DNA of 64,000 nt from Candidatus Woesebacteria bacterium (lineage in GTDB: Bacteria > Patescibacteriota > Microgenomatia > UBA8517): contig CP055307.1 of NCBI GenBank assembly GCA_013374835.1, positions 215,315 through 279,314 of the forward strand, written 5' to 3'. Positions 13,499 through 55,597 of the stretch are shown piece after piece. Made by a program: the position numbers and the translations under genes. The notes beneath the pieces were generated by a model. That model did not search any database. It saw nothing but the letters and a program-made list of their open reading frames with translations, and was not told the DNA's origin. Each line of letters begins with the position of its first letter. The stretch's first letter is position 1.

Positions 13499-14446
13499 AT
13501 GCTTACGAAGGTAATGTCTGCTACGCACTTTGGACTCGATACGTTGCCAGTTGAAGTTGAGGTAAATATCGCTAAGAAAGGTTTTCCGGGATTTAATATT
13601 ATTGGACTTCCGAGTAAGTCTGTTGAGGAAGCGAAGGAGCGAGTGAAGACAGCGCTTGTTAATAGTGGAGTTGAGTTTCCGAATGCAAAGATTGTGGTTA
13701 ATCTTGCTCCTGCTGATATTCCCAAGGAGGGGAGTAGTTATGATTTACCTATTGCCTGCGGGATATTAAGATCTTTGGAGGCTATAAGCTTGCCTTCGGA
13801 AAAGATGTTTTTTTATGGAGAGCTTTCTCTTGATGGAAGTCTACGGCACACTAAAGGTGTTTTACTTCTTGCTCTTTATGCAAAAGAGCGTGGAATAAAA
13901 AGTTTATTTGTTCCTAAAGATTCTTCATTTGAGGCGGCTGTGGTGAGTGGAGTGCGGGTTTATCCGGTTGAGAATTTGGCACAAATTCTTTCTCATTTTA
14001 ATGGAGGAGGACAAATTGGCGTGTTTCGTGGTTTGAAAAAAAACGATGTTCATGAAGATATATTCCCGGAGATTGATTTTTCCGACATACTAGGGCAGGA
14101 GAGCGCAAAGCGAGCTTTGGAGATTGCTGCTTCTGGTGGGCACAATGTTCATATGCAAGGGCCTCCGGGATCGGGGAAAACCATGCTTGCAAGAGCGATG
14201 GCTGGGATTTTACCTCCATTGAGCGAAAAGGAAAGCCTTGAAGTAACTAAGATATATTCGGTTTCTGGGAATTTGCCTGCTGGGGCAAGCCTTATTTATG
14301 TCAGGCCGTTTCGAGTATCTCATCATACAACAAGCAGGATTGGGCTTATAGGCGGTGGAAGCAATCCTCACCCCGGGGAGATCTCGCTTGCTCACCGTGG
14401 AGTTTTGTTTTTGGATGAGTTATCGGAGTTCTCGGAGGTAAGTTAG
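13499..14446 (+). pseudogene. comM: ComM/YifB Mg-chelatase-family AAA+ ATPase, 5' fragment interrupted by the prophage
   Basis: N-terminal Lon/ChlI-like domain, Walker A GPPGSGKT, Walker B VLFLDE. The frame terminates 9 codons after Walker B (...[11 protein letters not shown]). The matching C-terminal part is found at 54938..55597. Confidence 0.85.
14412..14421 (+). repeat. attL core repeat TGGATGAGTT, within ~48 bp of imperfect similarity to the attR region
   Basis: Identical 10-mer at 54978..54987. The flanking sequence is ~60% identical on both sides and encodes comM-like peptides. Confidence 0.7.
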
Positions 14447-14539
14447 CTTCTTTTCTTCTTAAAGTCCCTGGACTTTTCCCAGTGCTAAATACCAGTGAAA
14501 CACATTTCTAAGTAAAAGTCAAGCCCTTTTTTGCCCCCT

Positions 14540-14608
14540 GCCTAAAGTCGTTATAATTTTAGTTGGAAATGTTGGAGAAGTTGGAAACCTGCCCCTTATA
14601 ATTGAACC
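14540..14608 (+). promoter_or_regulatory. Putative integrase promoter region with three tandem 9-bp repeats GTTGGA(A/G)A(N)
   Basis: TATAAT at 14552..14557. Repeats GTTGGAAAT, GTTGGAGAA and GTTGGAAAC at 14562..14588. A second TATAAT-like hexamer lies just before the int ATG at 14609. Confidence 0.3.
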
Positions 14609-15679
14609 ATGAGCTATCAAAAATACCTCTCGGAATACATTGATTTTATTCGCTATGACCGAGACCTCACCGATCATACATGCAAAGTGCGGAGGCAGTG
14701 GCTAGAGCGCTTCTTTCGTGACCTGGGTGGTCGGGAGTTCTCGTTTGAAAATATACGACTGCTCCTGCGGGAGTATAAAAGAAGCGATTTGTCTCCTAAC
14801 TATATCCATGTCCTAATCACTTCCCTCAACTCATTCATCCGCTTCCTTATTGCCGAGAAGCATTTGCCTTTAGAGGATTGCACTTCTAACCTGAACCAGC
14901 TTCGTCCCAAGAAGAAAATCGTTTTATACCAGACCCTTTCGTTGGAAGAGATTGAGAAAATCATCAATCCGCCCCCTCATAAAAATAACTACGAGCGGGA
15001 TTTGCATCCCAAGTATATTAAATGCGACTACATGTGGGGTTTGCTCCTGGAGTTCCTTGCCAAGACTGGTTGCCGTGTTGGAGAAGTAATCGCCCTAAAT
15101 GTGGGCGATTTTAACTTTGGCACGAATGAGTTTATTATCCGTGAGACTAAAACTGATGAGCAGCGCATCGTGCCTATTCCTCCTGATATGATTGAGAAAT
15201 TGCGGGAGTGGATTAAAAACAGGGGTGAGATTCCACCTTCTTCGCCGATGTTTATAACTATGCATTTTGCCCGCACCCGCCCTAATTCACGCATCGGCGA
15301 GTCTATGGTTAATAAGACTATTCGAGAGCGTGCCAAACGAGCTGGGCTTCATGTCGATCGGCGCTTTCACGCCCATAGTTTTCGCCATAGTTTTATAACC
15401 GAACTCTTGCGTCAGGATGTGGCTATCTCAAAAGTCCAGCGGATTGTTGGTCACCGCAAGGTTGATACTACCATGATCTATACTCACATGGTCACCGACG
15501 ATCTCCGCCAGGCGATGCTTAAGCACCCGCTTATTCGCAAGTCCCAAGACCCGCATGCTATTATCGAGAGTGTCAAAGAGGAGATTAAGTCTTTCAGATT
15601 GCATGGTGACGAGCGTTTTGATTACACTCTAACCGAGCGGAACGACGGCTTTTCCTTCAATATTTCTCTTAAGAAGTAA
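14609..15679 (+). CDS. int: Tyrosine recombinase / phage integrase
   Basis: N-terminal SAM-like core-binding domain. C-terminal catalytic motifs ...TGCRVGEVIAL..., HAHSFRHSFITELL, GHRKVDTTMIYTH (R...HxxR...Y). Confidence 0.9.
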   Translation: MSYQKYLSEYIDFIRYDRDLTDHTCKVRRQWLERFFRDLGGREFSFENIRLLLREYKRSDLSPNYIHVLITSLNSFIRFLIAEKHLPLEDCTSNLNQLRPKKKIVLYQTLSLEEIEKIINPPPHKNNYERDLHPKYIKCDYMWGLLLEFLAKTGCRVGEVIALNVGDFNFGTNEFIIRETKTDEQRIVPIPPDMIEKLREWIKNRGEIPPSSPMFITMHFARTRPNSRIGESMVNKTIRERAKRAGLHVDRRFHAHSFRHSFITELLRQDVAISKVQRIVGHRKVDTTMIYTHMVTDDLRQAMLKHPLIRKSQDPHAIIESVKEEIKSFRLHGDERFDYTLTERNDGFSFNISLKK

Positions 15680-15702
15680 AGTTTGATTGTATAATTGGAA
15701 AT

Positions 15703-54279: not shown

Positions 54280-54526
54280 AGGTTTGGATGCAACTTATTG
54301 GCTGTCCATCGTAATAGCATTGGCATTTTTCGAGCCATTCCTCGTTCCCGCTTACCTTTGCGCTCCTGCAGTTCATACGATCCTGGTTTTCAAAGGTGGT
54401 GTCTATGCCCTTGATAAAAGCCCAGCCGAGGATTAAAGCTCCGCTGCTGATGAGGATTACTTTTGCCAGTAGCCCTATGTCGTGATTGCGCTGCGGTTGG
54501 TAGGTGGTTGCTGCGTAATCCATCAT
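54266..54526 (-). CDS. Small membrane protein
   Basis: 86 aa with one TM helix (GLLAKVILISSGALILGWAFI) and a Cys-containing tail. Confidence 0.35.
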   Translation of the reverse strand: MMDYAATTYQPQRNHDIGLLAKVILISSGALILGWAFIKGIDTTFENQDRMNCRSAKVSGNEEWLEKCQCYYDGQPISCIQTYDEK

Positions 54527-54885
54527 GGTCGACCCTCCTTTCCTGGTTCGATGCCTAGCCTTTGCATGCGAGCAAGCATCTTGTCTCGTATTTGGTAGAT
54601 TCGTTTTTGGGAGATTCCGTGCTTGACGCTGATATCTTTTATCGACAGCGGAGAGTAGAGGTAATCGCTTAGGATGCGCCTGTCTCGTTCCCAGTTTTCG
54701 GATATGTTGGTGAGGAGGATTCTATTTACTGCATAAGAGTCTTTACCGTTTTTGGCGACCATTTGTTCGAGGGTCAACCCTGCGAAGTAGTCTTTGAGAA
54801 TGTCGGTGTTTGCGTCCCAATCTAAAAATCGCTTGACATTTCGCTTCCTTAGAGTTTGAATTTGTGACAATCTTTGGGCAGTCAT
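54523..54885 (-). CDS. Sigma-70 region-4-like HTH regulator (first gene inside attR)
   Basis: C-terminal LSIKDISVKHGISQKRIYQIRDKMLARM is an HTH typical of sigma-70 region 4 / LuxR-type domains. Confidence 0.45.
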   Translation of the reverse strand: MTAQRLSQIQTLRKRNVKRFLDWDANTDILKDYFAGLTLEQMVAKNGKDSYAVNRILLTNISENWERDRRILSDYLYSPLSIKDISVKHGISQKRIYQIRDKMLARMQRLGIEPGKEGRP

Positions 54886-54937
54886 GGTTTTTTGCCCTGG
54901 GATTGCGCCTTAATTTTGTGGGATAATTTAAGAGGTT

Positions 54938-55597
54938 ATGAAGCCTTTTTTATTTGTCCTTCGAGGATTCCGATTTCTGGATGAGTTTCCTGAATTTAGC
55001 AGAGGAACGCTTGAGGCTTTGAGGCAGCCAATGGAGGATGGTGAAGTTTCTATAACAAGGGCTGCTGGAAGTGTAAAGTTTCCGGCTTCTTTTATGCTTG
55101 TTGCGGCCAGTAATCCTTGTCCGTGCGGCTATCTGGGGGATGTTAGACGTGAGTGTAAATGTAGCCCTAGGCAGATAATGAGGTATCAAACAAAGCTTTC
55201 AGGACCTTTGATGGATAGAATTGATATACACATTAATGTTCCTGCTTTGGATGTTGATGAGCTGATGGAGAGAGGAGTTGTAAAGAGACCTGAAAGATCG
55301 ATTTCTGTGCGGGAGCGTGTTTTTAGGGCGAGAAAAATACAATTAAAAAGGTTTGATAAAGACGGGATTTATACAAATTCGGACATGAAAAATAAGCATA
55401 TTAAGAAGTACTGTGTGCTTGATAATGCGGGGCAGGCAATCTTAAAACAGGCGGTTAATACCTATGGATTATCTGCAAGAACATATTTTAGGATTATAAA
55501 AGTGGCAAGAACTATTGCCGATTTGGCAGGGAAAAAGGATATTGATGCTACTTGTGTTGCCGAAGCGCTTCAATATAGGGTCCGGTTAAACGATTAA
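54938..55597 (+). pseudogene. comM: ComM/YifB C-terminal fragment (Mg-chelatase C-terminal domain). Starts at a phage-junction ATG.
   Basis: [42 protein letters not shown]... continues the comM sequence from Walker B onward, followed by the ChlI C-terminal domain. Together with 13499..14446 it reconstructs a ~515-aa ComM. Confidence 0.85.
54978..54987 (+). repeat. attR core repeat TGGATGAGTT
   Basis: Identical to 14412..14421. Lies inside the 5' end of the comM C-terminal ORF. Confidence 0.7.

Follow-up and report, generated by a model that had tools for sequence, protein, structure and literature searches.

The 64-kb window analyzed here lies in the genome of a Candidatus Woesebacteria bacterium (contig CP055307.1), a member of the candidate phyla radiation (CPR)/Patescibacteria with a genome of about 0.9 Mb (901,682 bp). 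It carries the gene comM (yifB) in two pieces, which are separated by an insert of 40,566 bp when measured from one attachment (att) site to the other. The upstream open reading frame (ORF), of 315 amino acids (aa), matched the Pfam families ChlI (PF13541) and Mg_chelatase (PF01078; profile positions 1 to 120), and the downstream ORF, of 219 aa, matched PF01078 at positions 107 to 206 together with Mg_chelatase_C (PF13335). Thus, judged by their profile positions, the two halves are collinear, and their overlap is confined to the stretch around Walker B that both junctions encode. When 13499..14421 was joined to 54988..55597, an open 510-aa ComM resulted, which had the domain order of ComM/YifB (ChlI, then the Mg_chelatase AAA+ module, then Mg_chelatase_C) and full-length similarity to PDB entry 8rxd (Competence related protein ComM), with residues 9 to 508 aligned at an E value of 1.6e-120. 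In this alignment the 13-residue junction stretch of the joined protein paired with HHGVLFLDELPEF, and the insertion breaks ComM inside the alpha/beta core of the AAA+ fold. The original prediction, which took the two ORFs for the halves of one ComM split at Walker B, is therefore borne out by the Pfam positions and the joined frame. Each half ends in foreign DNA: the last eight codons of the 5' ORF (LSEFSEVS) and its stop codon are phage sequence, as are the first 13 codons of the 3' ORF, which consists of host DNA from the att core onward.

The insert differs from its surroundings in composition, with a GC content of 46.7% versus 37 to 39% on either side (38% for the host), and at both junctions the GC content steps from 37 to 39% to 45 to 50%. 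A gene for a tyrosine integrase begins 187 bp from the att core at the left junction (attL). Its product is identical to QLG69752.1, annotated as [quoted passage not shown] and contains TGCRVGE, HSFRHS, and GHRKVDTTMIYTH, which make up the R...HxxR...H/W...Y catalytic signature. Terminase, portal, major capsid, and tail genes lie with the integration module between the att sites, and by this gene content the insert is a tailed temperate phage. Taken as a whole, we consider it very probable that a temperate tailed phage of Ca. Woesebacteria integrated into comM by conservative site-specific recombination with its own tyrosine integrase. The structure of the locus, the att sites, the empty sites, the site specificity of the integrase family, and the presence of the same phage in two hosts, all of them observed, are the basis of this reading.

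Attachment sites and strand exchange

The window contains two copies of TGGATGAGTT and no more, at positions 14412 and 54978, where 0.13 copies would be expected by chance. The sequence lies in the Walker-B coding stretch of comM, ...GTT TTG TTT TTG GAT GAG TT... (VLFLDE). Immediately to the left of the core, the base in attL was the T of the host and the base in the right junction (attR) was the C of the phage. In a lysogen of a second host (L007, described below), attR reads TGGATGAATT, in which the eighth base is host derived. From these two boundaries it follows that strand exchange is probably limited to the 7 bp TGGATGA. Tyrosine integrases usually use a 7-bp overlap. The claim that the 10-bp repeat at the two junctions is the att core thus held, with matching empty sites in two hosts, and was refined in that only its first 7 bp are probably exchanged.

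In lambda-type recombination, the bacterial site (attB) is arranged as B-O-B' and the phage site (attP) as C-O-C' around a 7-bp overlap. The present system resembles this arrangement in the position of the integrase gene beside attL, in a short block of identity containing the putative overlap, in putative inverted half-sites in attP, and in the likeness of attB and attP just outside the overlap. In the reconstructed attP, TGGATGA is centred in the dyad CCGAT-TTC-[TGGATGA]-GTT-ATCGG, which is weaker in relatives, and it is plausible from this symmetry that CCGATTTC and GTTATCGG are inverted core-type half-sites. The integrase would recombine attP with attB in the Walker-B codons of comM, and the strands would be exchanged in TGGATGA between these half-sites. 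Three tandem GTTGGARA units (14561..14590, plus strand, with a period of 9 to 10 nt) lie just upstream of the integrase gene and overlap a promoter-like TGGAGA-18-TATAAT. They could be arm-type integrase sites or operators, and we make no claim for the former role, because the units are kept only in the closest relative.

The attP arms resemble comM beyond the core. Of the 26 positions nearest to the core, 14 matched between the attL and attR flanks. We masked the 10 bp of the core and compared attP with 79 comM genes over ±24 nt. On average, 21.4 of the 48 positions matched, whereas other places in these loci gave a background of 12.1 ± 3.0, and a position-by-position analysis placed the comM-like zone at about -30 to +22 (roughly 50 bp). 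This agrees well with the mimicry of about 48 bp first proposed. We also compared the 22-residue reading of attP in the comM frame with the ComM consensus. After the core, the phage arm encoded (L/V/F)(S/P)E(F/S)(S/P), with a stop within zero to seven codons, in eight of eight phages, and its Leu codon varied among TTA, CTG, TTG, and GTG. There were too few sequences for selection on the encoded peptide to be judged. The similarity within about ±12 bp is explained by the core sites of the integrase. In contrast to the lambda type, the comM-like zone is wider than core sites alone need, and for the wider zone ancestry from comM sequence is more likely. The segment thus probably combines a core-site need of the integrase with a relic of comM.

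It had also been proposed that the 3' comM fragment gained a start codon from the phage. An ATG is indeed present in phage DNA at 54938, in frame and 2 nt downstream of AAGAGG, which resembles a Shine-Dalgarno (SD) sequence. However, the closest relative, with 88% identity in the integrase and 94% in the right-end protein, has ATT at this position and no other in-frame ATG before LDE. We therefore rejected a conserved, phage-supplied start codon, and with an SD-like sequence only 2 nt from the ATG, a functional start is unsupported; expression of the 3' fragment is probably incidental. In another relative, L094, the ATG of attP is located elsewhere and opens an in-frame, comM-like mini-ORF.

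Two hosts and one integrase family

An empty site close to that of the window was found by scanning with the joined ComM, using one genome per species. Ca. Woesebacteria UBA1430 (L011) has an intact comM with 97% protein identity. The core is present there once, and for 60 bp to either side the DNA is the same as in the predicted attB; over the surrounding 4 kb the identity is 89%. The check suggested with the original prediction, a comparison with an intact comM of a related genome, therefore gave an uninterrupted gene with one core and the expected attB. In addition, the attL or attR junction of the lysogen recurred at 99.9 to 100% identity in independent assemblies (SRR6825875, SRR6825879, SRR7008310, and SRR6186653).

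The same phage was present in a second host. In CP058602.1, a complete genome of 818,817 bp labelled Ca. Woesebacteria, an identical integrase lies beside a comM 5' fragment (L009) that differs from that of the window, as do the genes upstream of it, and the phage DNA is 98.6% identical over 7.6 kb. In L007 (SRR6825874), the right end of the phage, at 99.9% identity, is joined to a comM 3' fragment that is likewise not that of the window. An intact comM of 508 aa is present on a JGI contig (L169), where the genes upstream match those of L009 and the genes downstream match those of L007. By this shared gene order, L009 and L007 are the two prophage ends in a single host lineage, for which L169 represents the empty site. 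The ComM proteins of the two hosts are only 57% identical, comparable to the 54 to 64% between the window ComM and ComMs labelled Shapirobacteria, Gottesmanbacteria, and CPR3, and the genes 3' of comM differ as well, with yraN-dprA found in host 1. A literature search on CP058602 found nothing, and one on comM with attB gave nothing of use. The 3' comM fragment of L007 is frameshifted relative to the intact host-2 gene at about 5590..5650 of SRR6825874_96 and is called as 167 aa; either the split gene is decaying or the assembly is wrong at this place.

Contigs from SRR6186653 stop exactly where the junction types of the two hosts diverge, at both attR and attL. One of them (L003) starts at window position 54955, 30 nt before the G/A position at 54985, and another (L010) starts at 14408, at the TTTTT common to the attL of both hosts. 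Logan assemblies are built on 31-mer graphs, and on this assumption the contig ends suggest that both lysogens coexist in one sample.

The integrase has a small set of relatives, eight of them at 56 to 89% identity among 5.8 billion proteins. In every integrated relative examined, the integrase gene is located about 170 to 190 bp downstream of a comM 5' fragment of 312 to 318 aa that ends in LDE and a short tail. Six further relatives, with integrases 70 to at least 90% identical, were inserted at the same Walker-B codons: L157 (88%; Logan SRR31359996), L159-162 (83%; groundwater), L172 (76%; Logan SRR24490437), L163/164 (71%; GCA_964414895.1/Logan SRR14802572), L095 (70%; JGI metagenome), and L171 (at least 90%; Logan SRR16606022). 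Most of the integrated relatives have different host genes on either side of comM, and those with the core TGGACGA sit in comM alleles that code Asp by GAC. One contig of 40,987 bp covers a related prophage from att site to att site. Few attR sites were collected, since the 120-aa protein at the right end had only one homologue. The relative L094 (integrase 72% identical) was captured in the attP form, in which homologues of the right-end genes (replication initiator, orf86, and sigma-like) run through ...ATGTTTCGAGGACTCTCATTTCTGGACGAGTTGTCGGAGTCTTCG... into the integrase gene on contiguous DNA. This shows directly that unintegrated members of the family exist. Across the sequences compared, the whole integrase family shares the specificity for the comM Walker-B site.

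Gene content of the prophage and its surroundings

The expectation of a prophage of about 40.6 kb was confirmed by its genes, which include those for TerL, portal, major head, tail-fibre, and tape-measure-like proteins, replication and recombination functions, and the integrase (Table 1). Most of them form a packed block on the minus strand. The two small genes after the integrase gene are kept in relatives, and their products are candidate lysogeny regulators or excisionase. The polyvalent protein was kept in all relatives at 1787 to 1999 aa, some with ART-PolyVal or BRX matches, and is possibly an injected anti-defence protein. No transposase-like families were found among the scanned proteins, and the mobility gene is the tyrosine integrase. 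Among 50,697 phage records in INPHARED there was no DNA-level relative, and TerL identity did not exceed 29%. Just upstream of the terminase gene, about 0.8 kb (44524..45340) carries no minus-strand ORF of at least 80 aa, in contrast to the otherwise packed block.

Table 1. Features of the comM locus and its prophage (window coordinates)
Feature	Coordinates	Strand	Details
comM 5' fragment	13499..14446	+	315 aa; Lon-like ChlI domain, Walker A, Walker B
attL core, TGGATGAGTT	14412..14421	+	probable 7-bp overlap TGGATGA at 14412..14418
P' arm of attP	14422..14608	+	putative C' half-site GTTATCGG; comM-like codons SEFSEVS*; GTTGGARA repeats; sigma-70-like site just before the integrase gene
Tyrosine integrase	14609..15679	+	356 aa; PF00589, E = 2.9e-31; PHROG 1, E = 2.8e-46
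Two small genes after the integrase gene	15703..16344	+	92-aa protein of unassigned function; 87-aa AbrB/MazE-fold protein
Peptidase_C39-like protein	16829..17941	-	370 aa
Polyvalent protein	17948..23335	-	1795 aa; LPD38 domain; weak PARP/ADP-ribosyltransferase match
Tail module	23391..31260	-	
Tail-fibre protein	24677..26008	-	
Tape-measure-like protein	28244..30844	-	866 aa; C-terminal amidase/endolysin domain, about 706-858
Major head protein	33860..35026	-	PHROG 1328, E = 1.8e-39
Portal or head-tail adaptor protein	38559..40430	-	
Terminase large subunit (TerL)	45341..46915	-	PHROG 675, E = 2.2e-95
Terminase small-subunit candidate, weak	46875..47468	-	
ParB-like nuclease domain fused to DNA methyltransferase	47524..48822	-	PHROG 498, E = 5.7e-124; adjoins the terminase genes
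Early/replication module	51103..54885	-	includes Ros/MucR-HNH-repeat protein
Replication initiator	52790..53596	-	
Rad52/Erf-like annealase	53593..54279	-	
Sigma-r4-like protein	54523..54885	-	120 aa
P arm of attP	54886..54977	+	SD-like AAGAGG; ATG at 54938; comM-like codons RGFRF; putative C half-site CCGATTTC
comM 3' fragment	54938..55597	+	219 aa; remaining AAA+ module and Mg_chelatase_C
attR core, TGGATGAGTT	54978..54987	+	
Host yraN (UPF0102) and dprA	55598..56859	+	tightly packed 3' of comM

Downstream of the prophage, comM, yraN, and dprA are arranged head to tail, with boundaries at 55597/55598 and 55993, so that the prophage now cuts yraN-dprA off from the comM promoter. No sigma-70-like plus-strand promoter leading outward from the right end of the phage was found in 54400..55700, and the insertion may be polar on the expression of yraN-dprA. 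An Rfam scan of the window gave a tRNA-Cys as its sole match. In another Woesebacteria-like locus (L031, 1180..5241 of CAZGHY010000027.1), a comM with 70% identity is interrupted near residue 389 (...LMDRIDLH) and is followed by unrelated sequence with a 924-aa N6-adenine methyltransferase/restriction-type gene. This looks like a second, different kind of comM insertion in the Woesebacteria group.

Alternatives, precedents, and the meaning of the site

Several observations weigh against integration by an active temperate phage. Neither an attP form nor an empty site was found for this exact strain, the 25-nt attP junction had no match in IMG/VR, the exact joined ComM was absent from a collection of 15 billion proteins, and no excisionase was recognised among the prophage proteins. 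The contig ends in SRR6186653 had been considered as a sign of attP and were rejected, as base by base they are the branch between the two host junction types. The 7-bp overlap depends on one variant attR, that of L007, whose own attB before insertion was not seen directly, and the nearest empty site (L169, about 95% identical) has G at the variant position. With regard to the consequences of the insertion, we know of no demonstration of natural transformation, or of a role of ComM in it, in Woesebacteria. ComM is dispensable for transformation even in model species (PMC12378983).

The missing free form and excisionase would also fit a cryptic or defective element that is fixed and immobile, with comM a plain pseudogene. 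We regard this as quite unlikely, because the virion, replication, and integration genes are full length, with long intact ORFs that include the one of 1795 aa, because copies that are 98.6 to 99.9% identical, in hosts whose ComMs share 57% identity, point to horizontal spread in the very recent past, and because one relative was caught as attP and another is spanned by a contig from att site to att site. The phage may still be inducible today. An assembly chimera, in which a phage contig was misjoined into comM through the short repeat, is hardly conceivable. The presence of the phage in more than one host per sample does break the assembly graph at the junctions, but the shared sequence is only 10 to 14 bp, far below assembler word sizes, and both junctions were recovered again from several runs assembled independently in Logan, as well as from two complete genomes at NCBI.

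The remaining alternatives grant the insertion and assign it a function. The prophage might act as a reversible switch that leaves without lysis when ComM is needed, restores the gene, and reintegrates, as phi10403S does in Listeria comK. The insertion is precise, its excision would give the intact 510-aa ORF, both att sites and the integrase gene are intact, and the site is conserved across the phage family. However, we saw no sign of excision without replication and found no empty site of the same strain, and the frameshift in the 3' comM of the host-2 lysogen, if real rather than an assembly error, speaks against the gene being put back to use regularly. Such a switch is accordingly unlikely. 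Very unlikely, in our view, is a two-piece or dominant-negative ComM, in which the attP arms would give the 5' half a short tail resembling comM and a stop, and the 3' half an SD sequence, an ATG, and a duplicated Walker-B strand; both halves would then be produced and would reassemble or poison hexamers. The in-frame ATG after AAGAGG, the comM-like residues kept in the arms (RGFRFLDE on one side and the post-core motif of the eight relatives on the other), and the mini-ORF with its in-frame ATG in the attP of L094 are in its favor. Against it stand the ATT of the closest relative, with no substitute ATG, the 2-nt SD spacing, and a break in the alpha/beta core that makes productive reassembly unlikely; the similarity of the arms is also accounted for by core sites of the integrase or by comM ancestry.

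We therefore prefer integration of a temperate phage by its own integrase, which would cut ComM in its AAA+ core and whose precise reversal would restore the gene. The choice of site may bring two benefits. Since the target codons are almost invariant, a single phage is able to lysogenise hosts whose ComMs share only 57% identity, and the benefit that most likely applies, which rests on the data presented here, is a broad host range through a nearly universal and invariant attB. The other, protection from deletion by transformation, may apply by analogy. The CPR lifestyle is thought to rely on DNA uptake. Loss of ComM, possibly together with a polar loss of yraN-dprA, should reduce transformation-driven recombination, and by analogy with the comM elements of Proteobacteria this would lower the chance that incoming empty-site DNA deletes the prophage. 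In Acinetobacter, inactivation of comM has been shown experimentally to protect islands from curing by transformation, and it lowers curing while sparing some allelic exchange (PMC11441513).

That comM is an insertion hotspot of mobile genetic elements (MGEs) in other bacteria, as first noted for this locus, is well documented, with many MGEs interrupting it in Proteobacteria (PMC12378983, PMC4774983). Elements with an integrase are known from Aggregatibacter actinomycetemcomitans HK1651 (CF65_00446 family), Acinetobacter, Mannheimia, Francisella, and Pseudomonas syringae (Croucher et al. 2016, PMC4774983). At the level of the gene, these resemble the present case in that a site-specific integrase places an element inside the comM frame and disrupts a transformation helicase, at a location that is orthologous without being perfectly conserved across divergent hosts. 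The present element differs in its CPR host, in being a complete tailed phage, and in its integrase, whose 18 matches form a small separate family that includes no named relative from Proteobacteria. The AbaR islands of Acinetobacter baumannii share the target gene (Tuffet et al. 2024, PMC11441513); unlike the phage described here, with its tyrosine integrase and att core, they are non-phage elements that use Tn7-like transposition and carry resistance genes. Listeria phi10403S/A118 in comK and prophages in comYC, comFA, comGA, and ssbB (PMC12378983, PMC4774983) likewise lie inside a competence-related gene that is not rebuilt and that excision restores. Their target in Listeria has a different identity and function, and regulated nonlytic excision belongs to the comK system.

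Prophages of CPR bacteria have been documented in Roizmanbacteria, Saccharibacteria, Absconditabacteria, Gracilibacteria, and Paceibacteria (PMC6509639, PMC12455944), and Chen et al. (2019, PMC6509639) presented the prophage and phages of Roizmanbacteria as the first from the Microgenomates superphylum. The phage described here is similarly a temperate tailed phage of a Microgenomates-group CPR host with a sub-megabase genome. It differs in host lineage, and its att sites, empty sites, and second host are defined, whereas PMC6509639 makes no mention of an integration site in comM or a chelatase gene. In the literature searched, Woesebacteria and prophages were mentioned together by three records (a paper, its preprint, and a phage paper on another subject), and this comM prophage was described in none of them. 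The mechanism (a tyrosine integrase acting at a short core) and the target gene are known. What is new is the group of hosts, the family of integrases, the precise Walker-B position, and the evidence from two hosts.

To our knowledge, phages of CPR/Patescibacteria are poorly known, and how they integrate or which hosts they use has been defined for almost none of them. The present locus yields the exact attL, attR, and attB, together with attP from a relative, and two hosts each with a matching empty site. The small integrase family (70 to 100% identity) has one shared specificity, and with attB present in almost every bacterial comM/yifB, the enzyme is a candidate tool for DNA insertion in uncultured or genetically intractable bacteria. 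The locus also provides a concrete case of a temperate phage crossing a wide host gap through an ultraconserved target motif. Finally, it extends recurrent insertion of MGEs in comM to the CPR and supports the genome-curing view of transformation. The fuller picture is one we propose tentatively, with the balance somewhat against all of it being correct. Here, a single phage would use the near-invariant Walker-B attB to lysogenise Woesebacteria 57% apart in ComM, likely of different genera or families, as part of a phage family specialised on this site, and the conserved mini-ORF of attP may have a function of its own. If the loss of comM protects the prophage, the conflict between MGEs and transformation that is seen in Proteobacteria and Firmicutes would have arisen independently in the CPR.

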